Positions 3,689-48,673 of a DNA stretch of 64,000 nucleotides are shown piece by piece. Position 1 is the first letter of the stretch. Each line of letters begins with the position of its first letter. The notes beneath the pieces were generated by a model. It was not told where the DNA came from, ran no database searches, and saw only the letters and a list, made by a program, of their open reading frames with translations. This stretch comes from Acidobacteriota bacterium (lineage in GTDB: Bacteria; Acidobacteriota; Thermoanaerobaculia; Multivoradales; Multivoraceae). The position numbers were made by a program, and so were the translations under genes. Where the stretch lies: positions 1,274-65,273 of the forward strand of contig QQVD01000018.1 in the NCBI GenBank assembly GCA_003388555.1, read 5' to 3'.

Positions 3689-4492
3689 TCAGTCGGGCAG
3701 CGCATCGCTCGGGCCCCGGCGCCGCCACTCGAAGAGCACCACCGAGGCAGCGACGGCGGCATTGAGCGATTCGACCCCGGCGACGAGCGGGATCGTCAAG
3801 CGGTGCGTGGCCAGGCGGTTCGCCGCGGCCGAGACGCCGTGTGCCTCGGAGCCTACGACCAGGACCCCCGCCGGCGGCAGCGTCGCGCTCCACAGAGGGG
3901 TTCCGCCGTGCGCCGCCAGCGTCAGCCAGGGTGCCGTGTCGCCGACGAGCTCGCGAAGCTGCTCGGGCGCAGCGCCCCAGAGGAGGGGAAGGCGGAGCGC
4001 CGCACCGGCCGACGCTCGCACCGCCCGGGGATTGCGCCACGAGCAGCTCCCCGGCGCCGCCACCACAGCCGCGCAGCCGGAGGCGGCCGCACTACGGATC
4101 AGCGCGCCGACGTTGCCCGGGTCCTGCACCGCGTCGAGGTACAGCACCCGGCCTGCGACGGCTCGACGCTTCAACTCGGCGAGGTCAGGTCGCTGCACGC
4201 TGGCCAGGGCCAGCAAGCCGCGGGGAGAGTCGACGTCGGACCCTTCTCGCAGCAGCGCCGGCTCCACCTCGCGCACCTCGACCCCCAGCGAGCCGGCCCG
4301 TTCGAGCAGCGCGGCGAACGTCTCCCGCTGGCCTGCCTCGACGAGCAGCACCTCGAGAGCCGTGCCGCATTCGAGAGCGGTCTGCACGAGGTGCGGGCCT
4401 TCGAGCAGCACGCCATCGTCCTCCCGTCCACCTTTACTTCGGCGCAGACGGCGCGTAGCCTTGAGGATTCGATTGTCCCGACTCGAGATCAC
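3689..4492 (-). CDS. TrmH/SpoU-family RNA 2'-O-methyltransferase (RlmB-like)
   Basis: 267 aa with SpoU motifs (LDAVQDPGNVGALIRSAAASG, VVGSEAHGVS, IPLVAGVESLNAAVAASVVLFE). Confidence 0.83.
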   Translation of the reverse strand: MISSRDNRILKATRRLRRSKGGREDDGVLLEGPHLVQTALECGTALEVLLVEAGQRETFAALLERAGSLGVEVREVEPALLREGSDVDSPRGLLALASVQRPDLAELKRRAVAGRVLYLDAVQDPGNVGALIRSAAASGCAAVVAAPGSCSWRNPRAVRASAGAALRLPLLWGAAPEQLRELVGDTAPWLTLAAHGGTPLWSATLPPAGVLVVGSEAHGVSAAANRLATHRLTIPLVAGVESLNAAVAASVVLFEWRRRGPSDALPD

Positions 4493-4554
4493 TCTCCGAC
4501 GGACTCCCTCGAAAGCCGGATGGCCGGGTGACGGGTCGACTGCAGGTTCACCGT

Positions 4555-4608
4555 GGTGACTGGGGTGACTGGGGTGACTGGGGTGACTGGGGTGACTGGG
4601 GTGACTGC
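4555..4608 (+). repeat. Tandem 9-bp repeat GGTGACTGG x5 plus one imperfect copy
   Basis: Direct reading of 4555..4608. Lies between the divergent trmH-like gene (start 4492) and ORF 4528/4621. In frame with the GTG 4528 start, where it encodes (GDW)6. Confidence 0.9.
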
Positions 4609-4620
4609 AGGGTGAATGGA

Positions 4621-5328
4621 ATGAGCCTGCGCAGCGATCTGCTCACCGCCTTCTGGAACCGCTTTCCCGAGGACCGCGTCCGTGTCGCCGTGGTCGGTGA
4701 GGACCCGGACAAGCGCGCCGGAGTGCTGCTCGGCATGCGAGCCTACCTGGGCTTCGATCCCTCGTGGGAGAAGGCACCGCCGACCCGCGCGCGCCCGGCC
4801 GAGCGACGTCATCGTGGACCGATCGCCGGGATCCGCGAGGTCGAGGAGGAGCCCGCCCCGGACGCTCGGCGCGAGCTGACCGTGACCTCGGTGCCGGACG
4901 GCGGCGGCGAGGGCGCGGTGCCGGTCGATGACGCCGAGACGGTCGCGCGCGCCCTGCGCCGGGCCCGCGCGCTGACAGCGAGCACCCGCACACCGCCTCT
5001 CTTCGACCTCTACGTCTGCGCCGAGGGCGGCGCCCACGATCTGGTGGTGGGAGACGCCGGCAGCGGCGAGCGCTTCCTCCTCGCCCGCAGCTGGGTGGCG
5101 ATCGAGGCTCCGTGGGGCCGTGCCATCGGCAGCAGCGCCTCACTGCAGCTCCCCGCGACTCTCGCGGCGGGAGGCGACGGCCTGCCGGTGCCGGGCACCC
5201 GTCGCCACGGTGGTGTGCTCGCCTCGCTCACCGGCGGTCTGCTCGACCGCCGCCACGCAGTCGCCACGGCGACGACCCACGCCCTCGCCTCGCTGGTCTA
5301 CCCACTGCTCTCGTCGCGCCCGCTGTAG
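4621..5328 (+). CDS. Hypothetical protein; the ORF could start at GTG 4528 and then carry the N-terminal (GDW)6 repeat
   Basis: G/C-dominated third codon positions across the ORF, as in the other coding regions here. No recognisable domain. ATG 4621 preceded by GGTGA. Confidence 0.5.
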   Translation: MSLRSDLLTAFWNRFPEDRVRVAVVGEDPDKRAGVLLGMRAYLGFDPSWEKAPPTRARPAERRHRGPIAGIREVEEEPAPDARRELTVTSVPDGGGEGAVPVDDAETVARALRRARALTASTRTPPLFDLYVCAEGGAHDLVVGDAGSGERFLLARSWVAIEAPWGRAIGSSASLQLPATLAAGGDGLPVPGTRRHGGVLASLTGGLLDRRHAVATATTHALASLVYPLLSSRPL

Positions 5329-5685
5329 GGGCTGCGCCAGCAGGGGCCGGTAGCGGCTCAGGAGCCACTACCCAAGGGCCGCGGCGCTGCGGCGCTGTGC
5401 TAGCCTGAACCGTCCAGCCGCCGCTCCGGAGGCCGACGGTCCGATTCGATGCCCGAGGGCCCGCAGAGGTCCAAGACGGGAAGGGTTGCGTGGCCGCGTT
5501 CCGAGCTCCCCGGCGAAGCGCCCCCGAAGCGCTCGGCGCGCCACGCGGCCAAGCCCGCTGCGCCCGGGTCGGGGATCCAATGAAACTCCACGGGCGACGC
5601 GCAGGCGTCGGCCCTGACGCCGCTGCTGCGGCGCCGCCCTGCCGTCAGCGCCTCGGCGCCCGCCCGGCATCGGAGGTCTCCAGCC

Positions 5686-6834
<1,149 letters not shown>

Positions 6835-8123: not shown

Positions 8124-10598
8124 TCACGTCTGCACTCCCAGGAACAGGTAGAGCGAAGCGGTGGAGAAGAGCACGTTGGGCGCCCAGACGGCGATCAGCG
8201 GTGGCAGGGCGCCAGCGTCGCCGAGGGTGACGAAGAAGGCGTTGAGGGCGAAGTAGATCATCCCGATCGCCAGCGCGATACCGATGCCGTAGAGGGCGCC
8301 GCGGCGCCCCAGACGGAAGGCGAAGGGGAGGGCGACGAAGGCCATGACCAGCGCCGCGCCTGGGCCGGCGAGCTTGCTGTGCAGCTGCACCCGGTACTGG
8401 GTCGTCTCCTGGCCGGCGTTCTCGAGCCGGTCGATGAAGTGCGCCAGCTCCTCTGGACCCATCTCCTCCGGCGGCTTGAGCTCGGTGTCGAAGAACTCTG
8501 GAGTCTCGGGCAGGTCGACCGGCACGGGGCCGACGAGCTCCCGCACGTCGGTCACCACCGAGCCGTCGAAGCGGCGCAGCCAACCGCCTCGGACCTGCCA
8601 CTGGCGACCGTCGTAGGCCGCCGTCTCGGCGTAGAGGCGGCCGGTGAGGGTGAGCCGCGCCAGGTCGAGCTGGAAGACGTGGAGGTGCTGCAGGGTGGCG
8701 CTCTCCTCGTCGAAGAACTGGAAGTGGTAGAGGTAACCGCCGCGACCGTACAGCCACTGCTGGTCGGCGCGCTTGAAGGTCCGGGTGTCCTGGGTGCCGC
8801 GGATGATGCTCTTGTAGTCGGCGGCGCGAGCGTTGGAGTAGGGGAGCACCGACGATTCGAGCAGCGCGCACAGCCCCGCGACAAGGAGCGCCGCCAGCAC
8901 CACCGGAATGGCGAGGCGGTAGAGACTGATCCCCGAAGCCTTCGCCGCGATCACCTCGTTGGATCTCGACAGCAGGCCGAAGGACACCAGGGTGCTGATC
9001 AGGATCACCACCGGGGCGAGCAGGTTGAAGATGTCGAACGAGAGGAACTTGTAGTACTGGAGGATCGTCTCGGTGGAGACGTCGTTCTCGAGCACCTCGT
9101 CGACCAGCTCGGTGAAGTTGGCGATCACGAAGACCAGCATGCCGGCCAGCGCGGCGAGCACGAACACGCGCGTGAACAGCCTGAGCAGATAGCGGTCGAG
9201 GACGTTGGGGAAGCGCAGCGACGGCAGCTGGAAGCGCAACCGCAGGTCGGCGTCGCGGCGCGCCGGCGGGGCAAGCAGGCTTCGTCGGCGCGGCGCCGCG
9301 GCCCGACCGGCGTCGCCGACCGCTCGATCGCTCTGGCGCTCCCGCTTCTCGCTGCGGCGCAGCTGACGCGATTCGCGCTTCTGGTACTTGCGCCGCTGCC
9401 GGTAGCGGGATCGCACCCTGGCGTGCGACCAGAACTGGTCCCGAATCCACTGGTCGAGACGGCTCAGGATCAGGCTCTTGTCACTGTTGCGCCTGGTCAG
9501 CAGGAACAACCCGGCGATCAGGAAGAGGATGTTGGGCAGCCACATCGCCAGCCAGGGAGCCAGATCGCCGCGCTCCGCGGTGCGCTCACCGGCGGTGATC
9601 AGGACCTGGTAGATCAGGATCACCACCAGCGACAAGGCGAAGCCGGACGAGCGTCCGCCGCGCCGGTTGTCGAAGCCCAGCGGCACGCCGAAGAGGCCGA
9701 GCACGATGCAGGCGGCAGGGATGGAGAACTTCTTGTGCACGTTCACCATCGCCAGGCTGCGCATGTTCTCGGGATTCGACTCGTCGGCGTGGAAGCGCAC
9801 CAGCTCCGAGAAGGTCATCGCACGCAGGGAGCGGGTCTGGGCGTGCTGCGCCCGCAGCGCCAGGGTGCCGTCGCTCTCGACCAGGGTCGAGGTGGCGAAG
9901 GTCTCGATCGAGTAGCGGTGCTGGGCTCCCAGATCGAGCTCGTGGACCGTGCCGTCCTGCAGGGTCAGGACGACCTCCGAGGCGGCCTCGTTGACGTCGA
10001 CGGTGCCGGACCTGGCGAAGGTGATGCGGCTCTGGCGGCCGAGGATCGAGTCGCCGACGAAGACGCCGGTCCAGCGCTCGCCGGCGGTTCGGTCGACGTA
10101 GAGCACCGTGCCGTCGAGCTCGTCGTAGAACCGTCCCGGTGTCACCTGGCCGACGACGTTGTTCGAGATCACCTCACGCTGCAGAGCCTGCGACCGGGTG
10201 TTGCCCCAAGGCAGCACGGTGAGCATCAACCAGATGTTGAGCGCCGTCAGCAGACCGGCCCAGGCCATCACCGGGCGGTAGAGCGCGAACAGGCTGATCC
10301 CGGCCGACCGGATGGCGACCAGTTCGCTGTCGGCCGAGAGACGGCCGACGGTGATCAGCACCGCGAACAGGAACGACATCGGGATGGTCAGCACCACGAT
10401 GTGCGGCAGGCTGAGCAGCAACAGCTCCGCCACGACACCCAGCGCGACGTCGCGCTGGATGATCATCTCGGCGAGATCGAAGAGCACGTCGGTGAGCAGG
10501 ATCATGGTGAAGACCATGAGCCCGAGCCCGAGCGGCCCGGCGATCTCGCGCATCACGTAGCGGTCGAGCACGCGGGTGACCATCGTCCCGGGGATCAT
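8124..10598 (-). CDS. Fused LptF-LptG-like LPS export permease (two YjgP/YjgQ permease domains in one 824-aa polypeptide)
   Basis: N-terminal domain starts VLDRYVMREIAGPLGLGLMVF. A second domain restarts at VLDRYLLRLFTRVFVLAAL after a highly basic linker (RYRQRRKYQKRESRQLRRSEKRERQ…). Both halves have YjgP/YjgQ topology. Confidence 0.82.
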   Translation of the reverse strand: MIPGTMVTRVLDRYVMREIAGPLGLGLMVFTMILLTDVLFDLAEMIIQRDVALGVVAELLLLSLPHIVVLTIPMSFLFAVLITVGRLSADSELVAIRSAGISLFALYRPVMAWAGLLTALNIWLMLTVLPWGNTRSQALQREVISNNVVGQVTPGRFYDELDGTVLYVDRTAGERWTGVFVGDSILGRQSRITFARSGTVDVNEAASEVVLTLQDGTVHELDLGAQHRYSIETFATSTLVESDGTLALRAQHAQTRSLRAMTFSELVRFHADESNPENMRSLAMVNVHKKFSIPAACIVLGLFGVPLGFDNRRGGRSSGFALSLVVILIYQVLITAGERTAERGDLAPWLAMWLPNILFLIAGLFLLTRRNSDKSLILSRLDQWIRDQFWSHARVRSRYRQRRKYQKRESRQLRRSEKRERQSDRAVGDAGRAAAPRRRSLLAPPARRDADLRLRFQLPSLRFPNVLDRYLLRLFTRVFVLAALAGMLVFVIANFTELVDEVLENDVSTETILQYYKFLSFDIFNLLAPVVILISTLVSFGLLSRSNEVIAAKASGISLYRLAIPVVLAALLVAGLCALLESSVLPYSNARAADYKSIIRGTQDTRTFKRADQQWLYGRGGYLYHFQFFDEESATLQHLHVFQLDLARLTLTGRLYAETAAYDGRQWQVRGGWLRRFDGSVVTDVRELVGPVPVDLPETPEFFDTELKPPEEMGPEELAHFIDRLENAGQETTQYRVQLHSKLAGPGAALVMAFVALPFAFRLGRRGALYGIGIALAIGMIYFALNAFFVTLGDAGALPPLIAVWAPNVLFSTASLYLFLGVQT

Positions 10599-10887
10599 AC
10601 GGGCGTGCGGGCGGAGGCCGACGAGGAGAACCCGGAACCGTGGGTGTGAGGTGGCTCGAAGAGCGGGGACAGGCGAGAACCGAGGCGGTCGCAGAGCCTG
10701 GGCCGGACCCGCCGCGATGCCGTCGTCCTCGGATGCAACGTCCGATAAGATGAATTATGTAAACCTCGATACTGCCCCTGCGCTGAGCCTGGCTCCTCCA
10801 GCAAGGCGTCTTCTTAGCCGTTAGGGCCTCTGATGCGCGCGCGTCCGGCGTCCTGCCGACTTCCGCGAGTTCCGAATCAGCGACCGT

Positions 10888-11863
10888 TCAGCCGGCGAGG
10901 ATGCGCTGGCGCTCCTCTTCGTCGAGGCCCTTGAGCTCCTCGATGACCGATTCCAGGGCCCGGATCAGGTCACTCGGATCGACCTCCGACTGCTTGAAGC
11001 TGAGTGACAGGCTGTAGCGCTTGTCGGGAGCCCGGAAACGGAAGGTGTACGGCTTGCGGCGCGGCGGCTTGCGACGGGCCGCGGGCGCACCGTCCGCCTT
11101 CTCGGCCGCCTCGCGGCGCTGCTTGACCTCCTCGCGCAGCTCGCGCCGGTTCAGTCCGAGGGTCGAGACGCGCTCGAGCAGGCGGATCATCTCGTCCTCG
11201 TCGTCGGCCTTGAGTACCTCCAGGAGGATCGACTTCGAATGCACGTCCAGGGCCTGGACCGCTTCGCGCACCCGCTCGGGCATCTGCAGCAGCGCGAAGG
11301 ACTCGGTGACCACCACCCGCGACTTCCCCACCGCCTCGGCGATCTGCTCGTGGGTGTAGCCGTACTGGTCGGCGAGCGCCCGGTAGCCCTCGGCCTCCTC
11401 GAAGGCGGTGAGGTCCTTGCGCTGCAGGTTCTCGATCAGGGCGATCTCGAGCGCCTCCTGCTCGGTCACCTCCATCTCGATCGCCGGGATCTCCAGCAGG
11501 CCCGCCTGAAGCGACGCACGGTAGCGACGCTCGCCCGAGATGATCCGGTAGATCGCTCCGTCCTCCTCGGCGCCATCACGTCCGTCGCGGTCCTCGTCGG
11601 ACAGCCGGCGCACGAGGATCGGCTCCAGCACGCCCTTGCTGCGGATCGACGCGACCAGGTCTCCGAGGTCCCCGATCATCGAACGAGGCTGGTCGGGGTC
11701 GGGCTCGATCGAGGACAGCGACAACATCCTCCCCACCGAGACCTCGTTGCGCTGCGACAACTCGTCGACGAAGTGCTGGCTGTGCCTCATCCTCACCCGC
11801 TTCGGCAGTCCCCGTTTCTTGCTCGCGTTGCTCGAGGCCGAGACCCTTCTGGCGCTCGCTGGA

Positions 11864-11871
<8 letters not shown>
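10888..11871 (-). CDS. parB: Chromosome partitioning protein ParB/Spo0J
   Basis: 327 aa, ParB box (…GERRYRASLQAGLLEIPAIE…), HTH and C-terminal dimerisation region. Overlaps parA by 8 nt. Confidence 0.93.
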
Positions 11872-12625
<754 letters not shown>

Positions 12626-39116: not shown

Positions 39117-41156
39117 ATGGCCGAACAAGACAACCTGCTCGACCACCTCCGAGGTCCGTTCAACTTCCTCGATCCGTCGATCGAGTCGATCCGACTTCAC
39201 CACGCGCGGCTCTCCCAGCTCCTGCCCAGGCCGCGTCCGATCTTCCTGCGCGACGGAGCCGCGACGCCCGTCATGGGCTTCCCGGTCCAGCGCAATCGCA
39301 GCGCGCTACGTCTCGCCGAGGCGCTGCGACTCTACATCGAGTCGGAGGAGCGAGCACAGGTCGCCACCCTGACCGGCGGCGCCGGCTTCGACCTGCGCTC
39401 GCACCAGATGGCCTGGTCCAACTACCGCGAGCAGCTCGAGGAGGTCAGCGAGAACCTGTTCAGCTCGAACTACGGGCGGAGCTTCCCGCAGATCTTCTGG
39501 CTCGACCACTCTCGTGACCTGGTGACGATCCTGCGCGGCACGCCGAGCCGGATCCGCCGTCTCGACCTGCAGATCGGCAAGCGTCGAGGAGAACAGCTGC
39601 GCTACACGGTGCTGTTCAAGTTCCTGCAGCGGGTGATCGCGCTGTGCTACGACCTCGCGGCGAGGATCTCACGCGAAACCGGGCAGACCGAAGAGGAGCT
39701 GTTCCCGCCCATCCTGACCCTGATGCAGGACAACGTGCTGATCCTGACCGAGGACCACGTCGGGCGGGAGCTCGAGGAGCTGGTCGGCTACTTCCGCGGC
39801 TACCTCAAGATCGACGGCCGCAGCCTCCTCTATCGGGTCGCTCTCCTGCGCAGCTGGCACCGCGAGACGCTGGCAGCGGACCCCTTCCTGCGCAGGACGG
39901 CGGAGACCCTGCACCCGGGAAGCGACGAGGCTCCCGACTCGCTCCTCCATCGTCAGGGCTACCTGGACATCCTGTCAGGACATCCCGGTTACGATCCGGC
40001 CGCCCTGCTCGGACCTCCGGAGATCCGGCTCTGGTCGGCCCTGCTCGAGAAGCTCAAGGAGTTCGAGCTACTCAACGCCACCCGCCGGCTGATCGTCGAG
40101 GTCACTGCGTCCGAGCGTGGCTATCTCTGCCCGGGCAGCGCCGCGAAGCGACTCGGGCTGCCGCCGCAGGACGTCGAGCTCTTCCGCGAGACCCGCCCAC
40201 TCGACTTCTCCGCACCGTGGATCATCGATCCCGAGGTCTCGCGCGTCGGCCTGATCTACGACATCACCGAGTTCTCGGCCATCGTCAGCATCGTCCGCCT
40301 CGCCGATCGCGCCTCACAGAACGACTCGTACCGGCAGATCTTCACCTTCCAGCACCGGATCAACCAGATCGCTCGCCTGCTCCGGTTGCGCATCGAGAAG
40401 TACCTCGGCGACGGCGCCTTCTATTCGGGGCGCAATCCGCTGCGCATGCTGATCGCGGCGCTGCGCATGCAGCGGGCCTACGCGGCCGCGGTGGCTGACG
40501 GATTCCCCTTCGACCGCGGCATGCGCCTGGCGCTGAACTTCGGTTCCTACCGACTGCTGCCGCTCGGCGGCAGCAACACAACCGAGGAGGAGCGCTACGA
40601 GGTCTACGGCCACGGACTGGTCGAGCTGTCGCGTCTGGTCAGCGGCAAGAAGGGGCTCGACTTCGAGGAGATCAAGTCGGTGCTGATCGCGCGCGGCTAC
40701 GACGAGCTGGCGGTCAACGACTTCTTCGCGCCGGTGACCGCGGACAGCGCGCGCGCCACGTTCGATCGCGCCAAGGGCGAGTTCTTCGCCGAGCTGAGCC
40801 GTGACGGCGCGCTGGTCAACGAGGGGATCGTCGCCACCGAGCGCTTCCTCGAGGAGCTGCAGCGGAGCCGGCACCTCGGACCGCTGTTCAAGGCGCAAAG
40901 GGACGATCGCAGCTATGTCGTCGTCGCCCAGCCCGCCGGTCCGGGCGAACGTGAGCTCATCGCGGTGAGGCGGCTCGGCCTCGCCCGTCTCAAGGGCCTC
41001 GACAAGCTCTCGGTGTACGAGGTGCTCGACGCCACCGGTTGGGAGCTCAAGCGCGAGGACCAGCTGCACCGCGTGCCGCTGGTGCAGGCGATCAACGAGT
41101 CGTTCACCGCCAGCCTCGCTCGCGCCGGCCGGCCGACGCCGATCCGTCCGCTCTAG
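39117..41156 (+). CDS. Hypothetical 679-aa protein with a central region resembling a class III adenylate/guanylate cyclase catalytic domain (divergent)
   Basis: G/C-dominated third codon positions across the ORF, as in the other coding regions here. Residues about 365-510 carry CHD-like motifs in the correct order: [11 protein letters not shown] (cf VTVLFADIVGFT), [10 protein letters not shown] (cf KTIGDAYM), [10 protein letters not shown] (cf RIGIHTG) and [16 protein letters not shown] (cf YDVWGDTVNLASRME, with Asn replaced by Glu). Confidence 0.75.
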
Positions 41157-43646: not shown

Positions 43647-44973
43647 AGCGCTCGAGGTTGCGGAAGGTGGTGGTATCGCCGAGGAAGGCGAGCTCGACCG
43701 TGCCGGTCTCACCGTGACGGTTCTTCGAGATGATCACCTCGGCCAGGCCTCGATTGTCGTCGTCGGGGTTGTAGACCTCGTCGCGATAGACGAAGGCGAC
43801 GACGTCGGCGTCCTGCTCGATCGATCCCGACTCACGCAGGTCGGCGAGCTGCGGGCGATGATCGCTGCCGCGGCGCTCCGGGTTGCGCGACAGTTGCGAC
43901 AGTGCCATCACCGGGATCTCGAGCTCCTTGGCGAGCTGCTTGAGGCCGCGGCTGATGGCCCCGATCTCGAGGTTGCGGTTCTCGTAGGCGCCGCCCGAGC
44001 TCATCAGCTGCAGATAGTCGATGATCAGCAGGTCCAGGCGCCGGTCGCTGCGCAGCCGCCTCGCCTTCGAGCCGATCTCGAGCAGGGTCGGGTTGCCGGA
44101 GTCGTCGATGTAGAGCGGCGCGTCGCCGATCTTGCGCCGCGTCTGATGCAGCAGACGCCAGTCCTGCTCGCTCAACTGGCCCTGGCGGATGCGCGAGAAC
44201 TCGATGTCGCTCTCCGAGGCGAGGATGCGCATCGCCAGCTCCTGCTCGCTCATCTCGAGCGAGAACACCCCGACGCCGCACTGCTCGCGGATCGCCACGT
44301 GCTGGGCGATGTTGATCGCCAGGCTGGTCTTGCCCATGCCGGGACGCCCGGCGACGATCACCAGGTTGCCGGGGTTGAGCCCGTGCAGGCTGCGGTCGAG
44401 GTCGGGGAAGCCCGTGCGCAGGCCCGGGAAGTCCTTCTCGCCGCGGCGCTCGATCTCGAGCACGGTCTCGTTGATCACCGACTGCAGCAGCGTGAAGCCC
44501 TTGGCGATCGCCTCCTCGCCGAGGCCGAGGATGCGCTGCTCGGCGAGGCCGAGAGCCTCCTGGGCACTGAGGCCGCCGTCGAAGCTGGAGCGGAAGACCT
44601 CGCTGCAGGCGTCGATCAGGCTGCGACGCAGGGAGCGCTCCTTGATGATCTCGACGTAGGAGTCGACCCGGCTCAGATCGGGTAGATCGACGTCGAGGGT
44701 GGCGAGGTAGGCGAGCCCGCCGGCGCGCTCGAGGTTCTCGCGCTGCTCGAGACGGGCCTGCACGGTGCGCAGGTCGATCTCCTCTGCCTCCGCCTGCAGC
44801 TCGATCATCGTGCGGTAGAGCAGCTGGTGACGCTCGGCGTAGAAGTCCTCCTCCACCAGGCGAGCGGCGGCCGCCGGCAGATGGCGCTCGGCATCGAGCA
44901 GGATCGCAGCCAGCACGGCGCGCTCCGACTCCTCGCTGTGCGGCAGCGTCTTCCTGTTCTCCAGCGTCAGCAC
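43594..44973 (-). CDS. dnaB: Replicative DNA helicase DnaB
   Basis: Walker A GRPGMGKTSLA, DnaB N-domain (…SEESERAVLAAILLD…), RecA-like C-domain. Start set at in-frame GTG 44973, because ATG 45102 would overlap the divergent radical-SAM gene. Confidence 0.92.
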   Translation of the reverse strand: MLTLENRKTLPHSEESERAVLAAILLDAERHLPAAAARLVEEDFYAERHQLLYRTMIELQAEAEEIDLRTVQARLEQRENLERAGGLAYLATLDVDLPDLSRVDSYVEIIKERSLRRSLIDACSEVFRSSFDGGLSAQEALGLAEQRILGLGEEAIAKGFTLLQSVINETVLEIERRGEKDFPGLRTGFPDLDRSLHGLNPGNLVIVAGRPGMGKTSLAINIAQHVAIREQCGVGVFSLEMSEQELAMRILASESDIEFSRIRQGQLSEQDWRLLHQTRRKIGDAPLYIDDSGNPTLLEIGSKARRLRSDRRLDLLIIDYLQLMSSGGAYENRNLEIGAISRGLKQLAKELEIPVMALSQLSRNPERRGSDHRPQLADLRESGSIEQDADVVAFVYRDEVYNPDDDNRGLAEVIISKNRHGETGTVELAFLGDTTTFRNLERYAQPPPDYDDHDPDVLV

Positions 44974-45081
44974 GGCGCTCAACTCTAAAGGACGATGCGC
45001 CCCGAATCGACGCCGGCAACGCCAAGGATCCGGCGCTGGCGGAGCGCCGGTCGCCGTGAGGCGATCCGATAGAGTGGCCGA

Positions 45082-46248
45082 GTGATGCGACCGTCCCGCC
45101 AACGCCCCCTGACGGTGCTCCTAGACGCCACCGAGAAGTGCAATCTGAAGTGCACGATGTGCTACTTCTCCGCCACCGACCGGCTGCGCTGGGAGCCCTT
45201 CGACCGCGAGCTCTCGCCCGACGGCATGATGCCGCTCGAGGTCTTCGAGAAGATCGCGGCGGACTTGTTCCCGCGCGCCTGGCGGGTCGCCCTGGCCTGC
45301 GCCGCGGAGCCGCTGATCCACCCGAGGTTCATCGAGATGGTCGGGATAGCGGGGCGCTACCGCGTCCCCGATCTCTGGTTCCCGACCAACCTCCTGGCAC
45401 TGACCGAGAAGAAGGCGCAGGCGATCGTCGACGCCGAGGTCACCACGGTCGGTGTGTCGATCGACGGCACCCGGCAGGAGACCTACGAGGCGATCCGGAT
45501 CGGCGGCAAGTGGGCCAGGCTGATGAAGGTCCTCGACCTGTTCAACCAGACACGCGAGGAGCGCAGGGCGAAGACCGGCCTGCGGATCATCTTCACCTGG
45601 ATGAAGACCAACCGGGGCGATCTGCTCCAGCTGCCGGAGTTCGCCGAGAGGCACGGCGCCAACGAGATCGACGTGCGCTTCGTGGTCCCCACCGCGGGCG
45701 TCGACGTGAGCGACGAAGTGCTCGACGGAGAGGACCCCTCGCGGCTGCGTGACGAGCTCGGCACCGCGGCGGAGGACGCCGTGCGCCGCGGCCTGCGCCT
45801 CTCCTCCTACCCCGAGTACGACAGCGCCGAGGAGATGTCCGGCCCGCTCGCCAGGCTGCGCCGCCAGTGGTTCCGCCGCCGCGCCGGGCTCGATCGCTGG
45901 GAGTACACCCACTACCGCATGCGCGAACGGCTCAAGGGCTGCGTGTGGCCCGGGGATTTCTATGTCGTGCGCCCGAACGGCGCCGTCTCGCCCTGCATCT
46001 TCTGGAACCAGGAACCGATCGGCTACTACCCCGACGACAGCTTCGCCGAGCTGAGCCAGGGGCCCCGGCTCACCGCGATCCTCGACGGCCTGCGCAGCGG
46101 CCGTCCGGTGGGCACCTGCCAGTCGTGCTCGCAGCGCAAGAACGCCCTCTACGTGCGCCTCAAGCGGCTGGTCGGTCGCGGCGACAGCGGCGACCTCGCC
46201 GAAGCCCGCGGTAGCGGTTCGGGGTCTTCCGACCTCGTGCAGCTGTGA
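45082..46248 (+). CDS. Radical SAM protein with C-terminal SPASM/twitch-like Cys cluster
   Basis: CNLKCTMCYF (Cx3Cx2C) near the N-terminus. C-terminal cysteines (…GCVWPGDFYVVRPNGAVSPCIFW…GTCQSCSQ). 388 aa. Confidence 0.82.
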   Translation: MMRPSRQRPLTVLLDATEKCNLKCTMCYFSATDRLRWEPFDRELSPDGMMPLEVFEKIAADLFPRAWRVALACAAEPLIHPRFIEMVGIAGRYRVPDLWFPTNLLALTEKKAQAIVDAEVTTVGVSIDGTRQETYEAIRIGGKWARLMKVLDLFNQTREERRAKTGLRIIFTWMKTNRGDLLQLPEFAERHGANEIDVRFVVPTAGVDVSDEVLDGEDPSRLRDELGTAAEDAVRRGLRLSSYPEYDSAEEMSGPLARLRRQWFRRRAGLDRWEYTHYRMRERLKGCVWPGDFYVVRPNGAVSPCIFWNQEPIGYYPDDSFAELSQGPRLTAILDGLRSGRPVGTCQSCSQRKNALYVRLKRLVGRGDSGDLAEARGSGSGSSDLVQL

Positions 46249-46258
46249 GACGCCGCAG

Positions 46259-48268
46259 ATGGCCGGGCCGCGGGCCGGGAGCCGTCCCGGAAGCCTGATC
46301 CGGGCCCTCCTCGCTCTCGCCCTCGTCTGGTCCTGCCTCGTCGCCGCCGCCAACCTGCAGCGGGCGTGGCGCGGTCGGCCGCAGGATCCAGGCCTGGCTC
46401 CCAGCCTGTGGCTGCTGGGCGGGCCTCAGTCCGAGGCCCTGCGGGCCGAGCTCGCGGCGGTCGCGGCCCGCGCTCCACGTGGCGCGACGCTGGCGCTGAC
46501 CTCGTTCCACGTGCCGTCGCACGAGCTGCACTTCGTGCACCTGTGGACGGCCTTCCTGCTCCCCCACCACCGGGTGGTGCGCGACGATGCTTCCGCCGGC
46601 GCCGACTACCTGCTGGCGTGGCCGGCGCTGGAGCCCGGGCTCGACGCCGGACCCACCACCGTCGCCGGCGGCGCCGGGGTGGAGCTGGCCGGAGCCGTGC
46701 ATCGCAGTCCGGCGCTGTCGCTGCACCGGCTCGCCTCCTCCGCCCCGCCTCCCGCGGACGGCGCCGACGAAGGGCCGGCGATCTCTCGCGCCGCTCGCGC
46801 CGACGCTCCCAGACTCGATCCGGTGCATCGCCGGCTCGACGCCGGGCGCTGGCTCTCCTGGGCCCTGTTCGTGCTGGCCACCACCATGACCGGCGCCGCC
46901 GCCGTGCACCTGCCGCGACGGCTCGCGCGGCGACGCGGCGACGCGCCAGCCGACGAGCCCGCGACGGGCGAGCCCGCCGTCTGGGGCCTGTGGCTGTTCT
47001 CCGGAATCGTCACCCTGTTCGTCCTGCTGGCCTGGAGCGACCTGATCGGCCTGCGATGGAGCCCTGCCGCGCTCCAGGCCGCCCTCGCGGTGGGCGCAGC
47101 GCTGGGCGTCGTCGCCCTCGTCCGGTCGCGGCGAGGCCCCGGACCCGGCCGCGGCCCGAGGGCGTCGGGCATCGCCGGCGGCGAGCTCGGCATCGCGCAT
47201 CTCGCCGCGACGCTCGGCGCCCTCGCCTTCGCCGCGCTCACCTGGCGGCTCGACGCGACCCTCTCCGACTTCGTCTACCACTGGGGGCTCAAGGCCAAGC
47301 GACTGGCGCTCACCGGCGGCGTCGACTTCGGCTTCCTCGCCGATCCGGCGGCCCAGTACGTCCACCCCGACTACCCCAACCTGCTGCCGGCGCTGTGGGC
47401 CGCGGAGGCGATCGCCACGGGCTCGCTGCACGAGCGCATGGCCTTGCTCTGGTCGCCCGTGGCGCTCGCCGCCCTCCTGGCGGTGGCGGTACGCGCGTCG
47501 ATCGGTGGCCGTGGCGAGTGGCCGGGGCGGTCGTCGAGGCAGCTCGGCGCCGCCTTGACGGTGACGACGAGCGCCGGCTTCGCCTGCGGCTACTACCAGG
47601 CCGGCTCGCCGGATCTGTTCCTGGCCGCCGGCGTGCTGCTGATCGCCTGCGCCCTCTGTTCACCGTGGTCCGGGCAACCGACCCCTGGCGGCGACGGTCT
47701 CGCCGCCAACGGCACCCTCTTCGCACTCGGCGCCGGCCTCGCTGCCGGCGCCAAGATCGAGGGCGTCGTCTTCGTGATCCTGGCGAGTGCGGTCCTGGCC
47801 ATCGACGGCGCTCGATGCGTGCTGCGCGGACGCGCGGTGACGGCGGTCGCCGGCTCGGCGCTGCCGGTGCTGACTCCGGCACTCCTGGTGGCCTTGCCCT
47901 GGCTGTTGGGCGTGCTCCGCCACGACCTGTTCCAGCCCGGCAACACCGCCGGCCTGGATCCCACCCGTCTCCCGGTGGTGCTCGCCGCCACCTGGCGGGC
48001 AGCCTGGATCCCGGCCTGGGCGGGCCTGCCACTGCTCGCCGTCGCCGGTCTGGCGGTGGCGTTGTCGCGGCGCTCGACGCGGCCCGTCGCGGCCCTGCTC
48101 CTGGCTCAGCTCGGCTTCTACCTCTACGCCTACCTGGCGACGCCGTTCGACGTCGAGGCGCTGGTCGCCACGAGCTTCCCGCGCCTCCTCTACCACCTCG
48201 TGCCGGCGGCGCTGGTCGTCACCACGATCGCGCTCGTGCCAGACTCGGAGCCCGATCCTGGCCGGTGA
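46259..48268 (+). CDS. Polytopic integral membrane protein (unknown family, possible GT-C-like glycosyltransferase), likely co-transcribed with the radical-SAM gene
   Basis: 669 aa, N-terminal TM, central soluble segment, then about 10 TM helices. Starts 11 nt after the radical-SAM stop. Confidence 0.65.
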   Translation: MAGPRAGSRPGSLIRALLALALVWSCLVAAANLQRAWRGRPQDPGLAPSLWLLGGPQSEALRAELAAVAARAPRGATLALTSFHVPSHELHFVHLWTAFLLPHHRVVRDDASAGADYLLAWPALEPGLDAGPTTVAGGAGVELAGAVHRSPALSLHRLASSAPPPADGADEGPAISRAARADAPRLDPVHRRLDAGRWLSWALFVLATTMTGAAAVHLPRRLARRRGDAPADEPATGEPAVWGLWLFSGIVTLFVLLAWSDLIGLRWSPAALQAALAVGAALGVVALVRSRRGPGPGRGPRASGIAGGELGIAHLAATLGALAFAALTWRLDATLSDFVYHWGLKAKRLALTGGVDFGFLADPAAQYVHPDYPNLLPALWAAEAIATGSLHERMALLWSPVALAALLAVAVRASIGGRGEWPGRSSRQLGAALTVTTSAGFACGYYQAGSPDLFLAAGVLLIACALCSPWSGQPTPGGDGLAANGTLFALGAGLAAGAKIEGVVFVILASAVLAIDGARCVLRGRAVTAVAGSALPVLTPALLVALPWLLGVLRHDLFQPGNTAGLDPTRLPVVLAATWRAAWIPAWAGLPLLAVAGLAVALSRRSTRPVAALLLAQLGFYLYAYLATPFDVEALVATSFPRLLYHLVPAALVVTTIALVPDSEPDPGR

Positions 48269-48299: not shown

Positions 48300-48385
48300 G
48301 CCGGAGTGGCGGAACGGTAGACGCAGAGGACTTAAAATCCTCCGCCTTCATCGGCATGTGGGTTCGAATCCCACCTCCGGCACCA
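48300..48385 (+). tRNA. tRNA-Leu (anticodon TAA), CCA encoded
   Basis: GCCGGAGTGGCGGAACGGTAGACGCAGAGGACTTAAAATCCTCCGCC…GGGTTCGAATCCCACCTCCGGCACCA. Anticodon stem GAGGA/TCCTC, loop CTTAAAA. Confidence 0.9.
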
Positions 48386-48449
48386 CTAAGGGAAGACGCG
48401 GCCGGACCGCCAACGGCCACCACCAGGCTGTGCCCGCACGCGGGCAACG

Positions 48450-48524
48450 TGGAGGCGACGGTCGGAATCGAACCGACGAATAAGGGCTTTGCAGGCCCCT
48501 GCCTTACCACTTGGCTACGTCGCC
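48450..48524 (-). tRNA. tRNA-Cys (anticodon GCA), CCA encoded
   Basis: Reverse complement GGCGACGTAGCCAAGTGGTAAGGCAGGGGCCTGCAAAGCCCTTATTCGTCGGTTCGATTCCGACCGTCGCCTCCA, 75 nt cloverleaf. Confidence 0.88.
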
Positions 48525-48598
48525 GGGCGTTGCGCGCCGCGCCATCGGCGCCGCGAGCTTCCACCTCGTGGATCGTGCGCACGATCCGGGAGGCGAGC

Positions 48599-48673
48599 TG
48601 GAGCGGGAAACGGGATTCGAACCCGCGACCCCAACCTTGGCAAGGTTGTGCTCTACCACTGAGCTATTCCCGC
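48599..48673 (-). tRNA. tRNA-Gly (anticodon GCC), CCA encoded
   Basis: Reverse complement GCGGGAATAGCTCAGTGGTAGAGCACAACCTTGCCAAGGTTGGGGTCGCGGGTTCGAATCCCGTTTCCCGCTCCA. Confidence 0.9.

Follow-up and report, generated by a model that had tools for sequence, protein, structure and literature searches.

Radical S-adenosylmethionine (SAM) enzymes with SPASM or twitch domains have mostly served as markers in the mining of genomes for peptide natural products. What does such an enzyme act on when its operon partner is a large membrane protein? The question is raised by a two-gene unit in a 64,000-nt stretch of contig QQVD01000018.1 from an Acidobacteriota bacterium (GCA_003388555.1), hereafter the window, in which a radical SAM gene, divergent from dnaB, is followed by a gene for a 669-residue polytopic membrane protein. 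A first reading of this DNA (hereafter the original prediction) had described the pair, and both open reading frames (ORFs) were indeed located. Their GC contents at third codon positions (GC3) of 0.94 and 0.90, respectively, are the signature of real genes in the source genome, and the GC3 of the membrane-protein ORF was highest or tied-highest in each 150-nt interval. The window has a GC content of about 70%, and database entries under the name "Acidobacteria bacterium" matched both proteins with 100% identity. Based on domain content, predicted folds, and genomic contexts in relatives, we tentatively favor the explanation, which we rate as quite possible, that the cytoplasmic twitch radical SAM enzyme modifies a sugar later transferred by a GT-C-like glycosyltransferase partner, with an envelope sugar polymer rather than a peptide as the product.

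Domain Composition of the Radical SAM Enzyme

The radical SAM protein matched the Pfam models Radical_SAM (PF04055; 5e-13, 49.9 bits versus a cut-off of 29.5) and SPASM (PF13186; 3e-6, 27.8 bits versus a cut-off of 21.5). An alignment of 18 family members (A1) showed that the canonical CxxxCxxC motif reported in the original prediction was invariant, as were the first residues of the C-terminal Cys pattern and an ACAAEP motif, the position of which presumably corresponds to that of the usual GGE SAM-binding motif. Four Cys residues of the C-terminal domain were conserved throughout, and none of the 18 members had a Cys residue beyond C348. SPASM domains, which hold two auxiliary clusters, are characterized by the seven-cysteine motif CX9-15GX4C-gap-CX2CX5CX3C-gap-C, and twitch domains are truncated SPASM domains with one auxiliary cluster (PMC6231123). 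Because only the first four Cys residues of this motif are kept and the last three are missing, the C-terminal domain is of the twitch type and is predicted to hold one auxiliary iron-sulfur cluster; of the SPASM/twitch-type Cys cluster originally described, the twitch alternative held and the full SPASM domain did not. The Pfam SPASM model still matches because a twitch domain is a truncated SPASM domain. The auxiliary [4Fe-4S] cluster of BtrN is fully ligated by four Cys residues (PMC6231123), and a fully Cys-ligated cluster would suit a function in accepting electrons, which has been proposed for both BtrN and anSME (PMC6231123). Alternatively, the invariant C72 of the ACAAEP motif could act as a hydrogen-atom donor in an epimerase-type reaction.

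The AlphaFold2 (AF2) model of the enzyme had a predicted local distance difference test (pLDDT) score of 76.6, contained strands at residues 292–295 and 300–302 in the twitch β-hairpin region around G299, and matched solved radical SAM structures (partial TIM-barrel fold) with E values of 1e-11 to 1e-6. The best Foldseek matches were SuiB (1.7e-11), BlsE (1.2e-10), SkfB (3.5e-10), and DesII (1.4e-9), together with anSME, viperin, and MoaA. Because these matches mix peptide-acting and sugar-acting enzymes, the fold alone leaves the substrate unfixed. The sole match in a PDB sequence search was SkfB (7e-7).

None of the 45 NCBIfam matches reached its curated cut-off. The best was the tungsten-cofactor maturase model TIGR04317 (86.5 bits versus 380), and the scores for MoaA (40 versus 284), MftC (41 versus 265), Tes (26 versus 450), and viperin (30 versus 180) were lower. 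No curated cofactor subfamily (MoaA, NirJ, AhbC/D, PqqE, MftC, or tungsten-cofactor maturase) was assigned at cut-off, so the profile search suggested earlier, which might have placed the enzyme in a well-characterized housekeeping subfamily, did not do so. More than 400 homologs at 57–67% identity were found. Use of ACAAEP as a search pattern recovered 127 GTDB species, and all 80 of those listed belonged to Acidobacteriota, mostly to the class Thermoanaerobaculia.

Two specific identities were rejected. An anti-phage viperin-like enzyme was discounted because the PADLOC model pVip (36 bits) matched the core region alone and the gene lies in stable class-wide synteny. Identity with anSME was dismissed by the lack of a second auxiliary cluster and of a model match.

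The variable C-terminal tail of the enzyme (window positions 46195–46245; A1 columns ~385–400) ends in a conserved (L/V)V(Q/E)(L/I)G in the clade of the window enzyme. Its counterpart in clade A (see below) is LEQLG, located immediately before a fused methyltransferase domain, and this element may be a docking motif.

Fusion of Two Genes in the Membrane Protein

A word-indexed search with the 669-residue protein returned only 14 homologs, which were 420–485 residues long and covered the C-terminal 50–67% of the query. Relatives carry two genes in its place, one encoding a protein of 149–190 residues with one N-terminal transmembrane helix and the other a polytopic protein of 427–482 residues, usually with a 4-nt overlap. 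A hidden Markov model (HMM) of the small protein matched the window ORF with 180 bits over residues 1–162, including the shared stretch WLLGGPQ...LP(R/P)HH(V/R)V, which was found in the translated genes of two relatives (L084, 7520–7993; L086, 7432–8004; L numbers denote loci). Judged from these matches, the 669-residue ORF is a fusion of two proteins encoded separately in relatives; the originally proposed large membrane protein of no known family remained unannotated, but it is not a single protein. The coding signal was weaker but unbroken in GC3 across the linker between the two parts. The ORF was identical in three assemblies, one of which (L003) represents a slightly different strain with neighboring genes at 98–99% identity, and is therefore not an assembly artifact. 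Such a fusion provides a Rosetta-stone clue that the single-pass and polytopic proteins act as one unit.

The whole protein contained about 10 transmembrane segments by hydropathy, and its AF2 model was helical (pLDDT 68.5). The N-terminal module was modeled as one helix at residues 10–37 followed by a low-confidence region, and the prediction was good from residue ~195 onward.

Predicted GT-C-Like Fold of the Polytopic Domain

A profile search of 1.84 billion cluster representatives yielded 2708 matches to the polytopic family at E ≤ 1e-3, of which 277 reached E ≤ 1e-30. All sampled members were annotated as "hypothetical protein" and came from Acidobacteriota, Thermoanaerobaculia or Holophagales. 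The family had no match in Pfam, NCBIfam, or PDB sequences, and scanning of 52 members singly at E ≤ 1 gave no consistent Pfam match. Assignment to GT39, GT83, or DUF2029, as suggested in the original prediction, was not supported: Pfam and NCBIfam placed the window protein in none of PMT/GT39, ArnT/GT83, DUF2029/GT87, and YfhO.

Conservation was highest in a loop between D337 and P377. In alignment A2, the residues D337, H341, W342, G343, K345, G354, D356, H369, P370, D371, Y372, and P373 were invariant, and the D, H, K, D, Y, and P of the loop stayed invariant across the 52 diverse members. The family consensus of the loop was (P/S)DFxYHWGxK...G.D...HPDYPNL.P, and further invariant residues were found in AKIEG and FPRL motifs. 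In the AF2 model, the loop formed four short helices right after the transmembrane helix at residues 312–330, with D337 just past that helix. GT-C glycosyltransferases carry a conserved acidic catalytic residue in the first extracytoplasmic loop behind a transmembrane helix, with juxtamembrane helices after it. In the window protein, however, three transmembrane helices precede the helical loop, and the orientation was derived from the positive-inside rule alone, based on an Arg-rich loop before the helix at residues 312–330; the conserved loop is thereby predicted to face the periplasm.

All substantial-probability Foldseek matches of the polytopic model in the PDB were GT-C glycosyltransferases, namely ArnT (probability 0.99), AftA (0.97; E value 4e-3), STT3 (0.91 and 0.82), ALG3 (0.80), Pmt4 (0.60), and EmbA-EmbB (0.47). 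Using an alignment of 138 sequences, hhalign related the family to the PMT-like neighbor family described below over 281 columns (P = 3.4e-4, at a probability of only 38%), and comparisons with YfhO and with a "big" membrane family were negative. With an alignment of 13 sequences, neither the PMT-like nor the YfhO comparison was significant. The GT-C-like character proposed originally is retained for the predicted fold, and "GT-C-like" is the best available, although unproven, assignment of the polytopic part.

One member of the polytopic family (P0127; L090, 8001–11468; 1155 residues) carries a C-terminal Sulfatase/Phosphodiest domain of the alkaline-phosphatase superfamily, in a layout resembling that of LtaS/EptA-type proteins. 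This fusion hints that the C-terminus of the family is periplasmic.

Genomic Contexts of the Radical SAM Family

Genomic contexts were compared using 80 radical SAM loci from GTDB species genomes and three more from protein look-ups, with counts made over 84 loci. Neighborhood clustering of raw ORFs was corrupted by long antisense ORFs at 70% GC, and genes were therefore called by GC3 and searched for with HMMs. The loci were classified into three groups by neighbor-joining ordering of the radical SAM domains and HMM searches of six-frame ORFs.

Clade C, which includes the window, comprised six loci, five of which showed the order radical SAM gene, small single-pass gene, and polytopic gene, with no methyltransferase. 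This block was kept in the window, L004, L084, L085, and L088. Its genes are closely spaced, with a gap of 10 nt in the window and gaps of 49 and 7 nt in L084, and in L088 the radical SAM gene overlaps the small gene by 4 nt. Different genes flank the block: the window has dnaB and tRNA genes, L004, L084, and L085 have wzm-wzt together with a WaaP/Kdo-kinase-like gene, and L088 has LigT and Gfo/Idh/MocA-GH109 genes. Co-occurrence of the gene pair, proposed earlier as a check, was observed in five of the six loci of the nearest clade despite these different flanks, but it was not family-wide, and the membrane module also occurred separately.

Clade B comprised 40 loci, in which a YfhO gene (28 loci) was followed by an adjacent class-I methyltransferase gene (25 loci) and the radical SAM gene, with a convergent PMT-like GT-C gene (29 loci) on the other side. 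Further methyltransferase genes and a gene for a polytopic protein of 670–736 residues were found upstream. The YfhO family was assigned with a Pfam E value of 6.9e-15, and the PMT-like protein matched Pfam PMT above the gathering threshold. A GT-C-type gene occurred within 2 kb of the radical SAM gene in 37 of the 40 loci. In L037, a member of the window membrane family lay convergent and immediately downstream of the radical SAM gene, in the usual position of the PMT-like gene. Members of this family were also found convergent and 1.5–2.6 kb downstream in L031, L052, and L064, with the PMT-like gene still next to the radical SAM gene in L031 and L052.

All 29 loci of clade A carried a GT4 gene upstream, and 24 carried a gene for a Gfo/Idh/MocA and aldo-keto reductase fusion downstream. 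A class-I methyltransferase-like domain was fused to the radical SAM enzyme in at least 25 of these loci, and genes for three secreted paralogs lay upstream.

Linkage of the radical SAM gene to genes for glycosyltransferases, methyltransferases, and sugar oxidoreductases was thus family-wide. Over all 84 loci, a GT-C-like gene (YfhO, PMT-like, or the window polytopic family) was located within 2 kb of the radical SAM gene in 42, a GT4 gene was adjacent in 29, and a class-I methyltransferase was adjacent or fused in 54. The membrane or glycan substrate considered in the original prediction fits this neighborhood. The family is a counter-example to the usual association of SPASM/twitch enzymes with peptides, having no peptide partner and being linked to glycosyltransferases, both GT-C-like and soluble, as well as to methyltransferases and sugar oxidoreductases. 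Searches of the window itself by tblastn found no YfhO, PMT-like, GT4, Gfo/Idh/MocA–aldo-keto reductase, or Zn-ribbon ORF.

Several additional features of these loci were observed. In L084 and L085, a divergent Wzm/Wzt O-polysaccharide ABC exporter (3712–5867) lies on one side of the block and a 777-residue WaaP/Kdo-kinase-like protein (9730–12063) on the other; Wzt contains a Wzt_C domain, a carbohydrate-binding module. Polyprenyl-phosphate sugar synthase and flippase genes were not recognized in L084, L085, or L088. Directly upstream of the radical SAM gene, a protein of ~100 residues with an N-terminal CPxC zinc-ribbon-like motif is encoded in a single synteny group comprising L084 (5960–6259), L085 (5948–6259), and L004 (9646–9960), with 63% identity between L004 and L084 and no counterpart in L088. 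Zn_ribbon_8 genes also occur near membrane-module copies that lack the radical SAM gene (L086, L089, and L090). In L088, a 276-residue protein (4235–5065) directly upstream of the radical SAM gene shares 40% identity with a portion of a 454-residue Methyltransf_23 protein (L089, 6182–7546), which is divergent from a membrane module without the enzyme and is a further methyltransferase link to the module.

In clade A, the three tandem secreted paralogs (~400–850 residues, with Pro/Asp/Thr-rich linkers; e.g., L027, 3752–5188) preceded the operon in all 29 loci and had no informative Pfam match; they could be glycoprotein substrates. The fused methyltransferase domain of this clade matched Pfam weakly (E value 0.005, versus 1e-15 to 1e-21 for the stand-alone methyltransferases of clade B), and its glycine-rich SAM-binding loop was degenerate in P0047 (residues ~430–460; VLFVGDEAW versus the expected VLDxGCGxG). 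This domain may have lost catalysis.

Proposed Function of the Two-Gene Unit

We favor sugar remodeling because the neighborhoods share sugar and envelope chemistry, the enzyme has a BtrN-type twitch domain, and its structure is close to those of BlsE and DesII. In the proposed mechanism, the two-gene operon would function as three proteins. The first gene would encode a soluble cytoplasmic radical SAM enzyme with a SAM-cleaving [4Fe-4S] cluster and, in its BtrN-type twitch domain, one four-Cys auxiliary cluster. The second would encode a single-pass protein fused to a GT-C-like polytopic protein of ~470 residues, with an acidic/His/Lys loop facing the periplasm. The radical SAM enzyme would take a hydrogen from the sugar or cyclitol moiety of a nucleotide-sugar, or of a polyprenyl-phosphate- or lipid-linked sugar at the cytoplasmic face. 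This moiety would be converted by oxidation, epimerization, dehydration, or rearrangement, as by BtrN, DesII, and BlsE on soluble sugars and, as proposed, by Cds and HpnJ on lipid-linked ones. After a putative physical hand-over between the two proteins, the GT-C-like partner would act as a transferase at the outer face, drawing on the lipid-linked product to decorate a glycoconjugate of the envelope.

Several observations weigh against this proposal. The case for it draws entirely on fold and genomic context. The 8 kb on either side of the unit encode neither a polyprenyl-phosphate sugar synthase nor a flippase and contain no further glycan gene, and the class-I methyltransferase frequent in the family was not found by tblastn in the whole 64-kb window. 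The small and polytopic module occurs without the radical SAM gene in L086, L089, and L090, and L006, of the nearest clade, carries the radical SAM gene without the module. Regarding the membrane protein, the Foldseek E values of the GT-C matches ranged from 4e-3 to ~1 with TM-scores of 0.22–0.35 at the pLDDT given above, the hhalign probability was low, and no Pfam, NCBIfam, or PDB sequence profile supports the GT-C assignment. Finally, the phosphodiesterase-type fusion in P0127 suggests that the family might handle phospho-substituents instead of, or besides, sugars.

A wider interpretation, which we consider doubtful, is that the unit represents a previously unrecognized radical SAM-dependent step in envelope glycan assembly, seen only in Acidobacteriota in these searches. 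The radical SAM enzyme would remodel a lipid- or nucleotide-linked sugar, and a new GT-C-like family with an obligatory single-pass partner, fused in the window, would take the product; sister clades would have been re-wired to YfhO- and PMT-type transferases and a class-I methyltransferase. Should the favored explanation be correct, radical chemistry would join the toolbox of bacterial envelope glycan or glycolipid biosynthesis, and a membrane family of ~2700 clusters annotated only as hypothetical could be given a function. It would also point to an unusual envelope sugar in a poorly cultured, environmentally widespread acidobacterial class.

Alternative Explanations

A different substrate on the same membrane is conceivable, namely a membrane lipid or polyprenyl carrier, on whose acyl or isoprenoid chain the enzyme would perform C–C coupling, support of methylation, or cyclization while the membrane protein binds, presents, or moves the lipid. 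Lipid chemistry would suit both kinds of partner, the membrane protein and the frequently linked methyltransferase, lipid-modifying radical SAM enzymes are a growing class (PMC13459092), and core matches were obtained to the tetraether synthase Tes (26 bits in NCBIfam) and to GDGT-MAS (7e-7 in Foldseek). However, these matches were weak, the Tes score against its cut-off of 450 reflects the generic radical SAM core only, and the SPASM domain of Tes binds two auxiliary clusters (PMC13459092), whereas the window enzyme is predicted to hold one. Moreover, the neighbors in the other clades are GT4, YfhO, PMT-like, and sugar dehydrogenase/reductase fusion genes rather than genes for lipid synthesis, and we regard a lipid-chain substrate as unlikely.

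A role as a maturase of a distant ribosomal peptide or protein, with the membrane protein exporting or glycosylating the product, would agree with the structural matches to SuiB and SkfB and with the PDB sequence match to SkfB. The small single-pass partner (or the N-terminal module) and the clade-A secreted proteins (c1) are candidate substrates. GT-C enzymes of the PMT and YfhO types are capable of protein glycosylation, a weak match to PgfM2 was obtained, and genes for the secreted paralogs, which have Pro/Thr/Asp-rich linkers, lie ahead of the clade-A operon. Nevertheless, no hallmark of peptide maturation was found. Neither a peptide recognition element (RRE) nor PqqD was detected in the enzyme or its neighbors by Pfam searches of both ORFs and precomputed annotations of the neighbors, and the enzyme has no N-terminal peptide-recognition domain because its cluster motif begins at residue 19. 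The two-gene unit contains no peptidase or ABC-maturation exporter, and no NCBIfam peptide-maturase model approached its cut-off. The 111-nt gap between dnaB and the radical SAM gene held no credible precursor, its sole small ORF being 25 residues long and Arg-rich, and the membrane-protein gene is followed after 32 nt by a tRNA-Leu gene. The called genes (≥50 residues) of the 84 loci included no recurring conserved small ORF, and the Zn-ribbon ORF of L004, L084, and L085 is missing from the window and L088. The statement of the original prediction that no precursor peptide, PqqD-like partner, or peptidase lies nearby was confirmed in the gap, by Pfam, and in the operon; its suggestion of a short unannotated peptide, along with the proposed search of the flanks for conserved short ORFs, gained no support, and a maturase function appears quite improbable.

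That the enzyme is a stand-alone, class-specific housekeeping or cofactor enzyme lying by chance next to the membrane module in a few related genomes is highly improbable: the separate occurrences of module and enzyme noted above, several "mid" loci with a radical SAM gene and no recognizable partner, and the housekeeping neighbors in the window would fit, but the order of the three genes is maintained between at least three sets of flanking genes, with the genes overlapping or very closely spaced, the varied GT-C-type genes abutting the radical SAM gene in clade B are hard to square with chance, and no curated cofactor subfamily was matched at cut-off.

Comparison with Known Systems

Sugar modification ahead of a GT-C-like transferase, the favored explanation, has partial precedents. 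BtrN, the 2-deoxy-scyllo-inosamine dehydrogenase of butirosin biosynthesis, combines a radical SAM core and a twitch domain with one auxiliary [4Fe-4S] cluster ligated by four Cys residues (PMC6231123), which the window enzyme keeps, and acts on a carbohydrate-type substrate. However, BtrN appeared neither among the PDB sequence matches nor among the top 50 Foldseek matches of the window enzyme, it serves a soluble pathway of antibiotic synthesis that involves no membrane partner, and the window family has the additional invariant C72. DesII and BlsE, among the best structural matches (TM-scores of about 0.55–0.66), are cytoplasmic radical SAM enzymes acting on activated, nucleotide-linked sugars later used by glycosyltransferases; they share 16–19% identity with the window enzyme and, unlike it, are encoded in secondary-metabolite clusters with no GT-C-type membrane partner.

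The calditol synthase Cds and HpnJ are radical SAM enzymes for which remodeling of lipid-linked sugar head groups has been proposed, and they resemble the proposed system as cytoplasmic enzymes acting on a lipid-attached sugar, with a glycosyltransferase also required in the pathway (PMC13459092). Homology to the window enzyme beyond the core was not evident, HpnJ-type models were not among the 25 of 45 NCBIfam matches listed, and the two enzymes act on hopanoid or glycerol dialkyl glycerol tetraether (GDGT) lipids without a GT-C partner. In three-component glycosylation (polyprenyl-phosphate sugar synthase, flippase, and GT-C transferase with auxiliary epimerases; e.g., Gtr, ArnT, and GT136), a GT-C enzyme is coupled to cytoplasmic donor-making enzymes, and auxiliary sugar-modifying enzymes diversify the lipid-linked donors (PMC11127046). 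The position of the clade-B radical SAM gene between YfhO-type and PMT-type GT-C genes is reminiscent of this arrangement. The window unit differs in having no synthase or flippase beside it (±8 kb), in the fold-level assignment of its GT-C partner, and in its auxiliary enzyme being a radical SAM enzyme, a kind that the abstract of PMC11127046 does not describe. The peptide or protein maturases SkfB, SuiB, and anSME share the overall fold of the window enzyme and gave its best Foldseek and PDB sequence matches, and the Pfam SPASM model matches the window enzyme, which lacks an RRE, a precursor peptide, and the Cys residues of a second auxiliary cluster.

Literature searches yielded no paper describing this enzyme family; those combining radical SAM with YfhO or glycosyltransferase returned only unrelated papers, those with Thermoanaerobaculia none, and those with GT-C or polyprenyl no paper with that combination. 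As originally stated, no described system was found that matches the pairing. Both families are uncharacterized, but the components, a twitch radical SAM enzyme and a putative GT-C-like transferase, are of recognizable kinds.

Features and Surroundings of the Locus

The features of the locus are listed in Table 1. The unit consists of exactly two genes, because dnaB (minus strand, called start at 44973) is divergent upstream and a tRNA cluster lies downstream. The spacer between the two genes was one nucleotide shorter than the 11 nt given originally.

Table 1. Coordinates of the two-gene unit, its motifs, and its boundaries in the window
Feature	Position	Strand	Remarks
dnaB/radical SAM intergenic region	44974–45084	.	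111 nt between divergent starts; presumed promoter region of the two-gene unit
Radical SAM/twitch enzyme gene	45085–46248	+	387 residues; ATG start in public gene calls; alternative GTG at 45082
CxxxCxxC (C19, C23, C26), SAM-cleaving [4Fe-4S] cluster	45139–45162	+	invariant in A1 (18 members)
ACAAEP motif with C72	45295–45312	+	C72, A73, A74, E75, and P76 invariant in A1
Twitch cysteines C286-x12-G299-x4-C304...C345-x2-C348	45940–46128	+	invariant in A1; first four Cys of the SPASM motif
Inter-gene spacer, operon junction	46249–46258	+	10 nt, gacgccgcag
Membrane-protein gene	46259–48268	+	669 residues
N-terminal module, residues 1–162	46259–46744	+	homologous to separate gene for single-transmembrane protein of 149–190 residues in relatives
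Pro/Ala/Arg-rich linker, residues 163–197, fusion point	46745–46849	+	between two HMM matches; pLDDT <50
Polytopic membrane domain, residues 198–669	46850–48268	+	predicted GT-C-like; unannotated family
Most conserved loop, D337...P377, SDFVYHWGLK...GGVD...HPDYPNLLP	47267–47389	+	predicted periplasmic; candidate active site
tRNA cluster, 3' boundary of the unit	48300–48673	Leu-taa (+), Cys-gca (-), Gly-gcc (-)	directly after the membrane-protein gene

No sigma-70-like match was found in the gap between dnaB and the radical SAM gene, promoter, terminator, and repeat scans of the unit gave nothing above chance, and an Rfam scan of the window identified tRNAs only. The remaining neighbors within ±8 kb are housekeeping genes, encoding leucyl aminopeptidase and the products of purC, alr, dnaB, a yraN-like gene, cysS, and def. 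Elsewhere in the window, a 679-residue ORF (39117–41156) shows a strong coding signal and no Pfam domain, and a 41%-identical relative is encoded near the radical SAM gene in L015.

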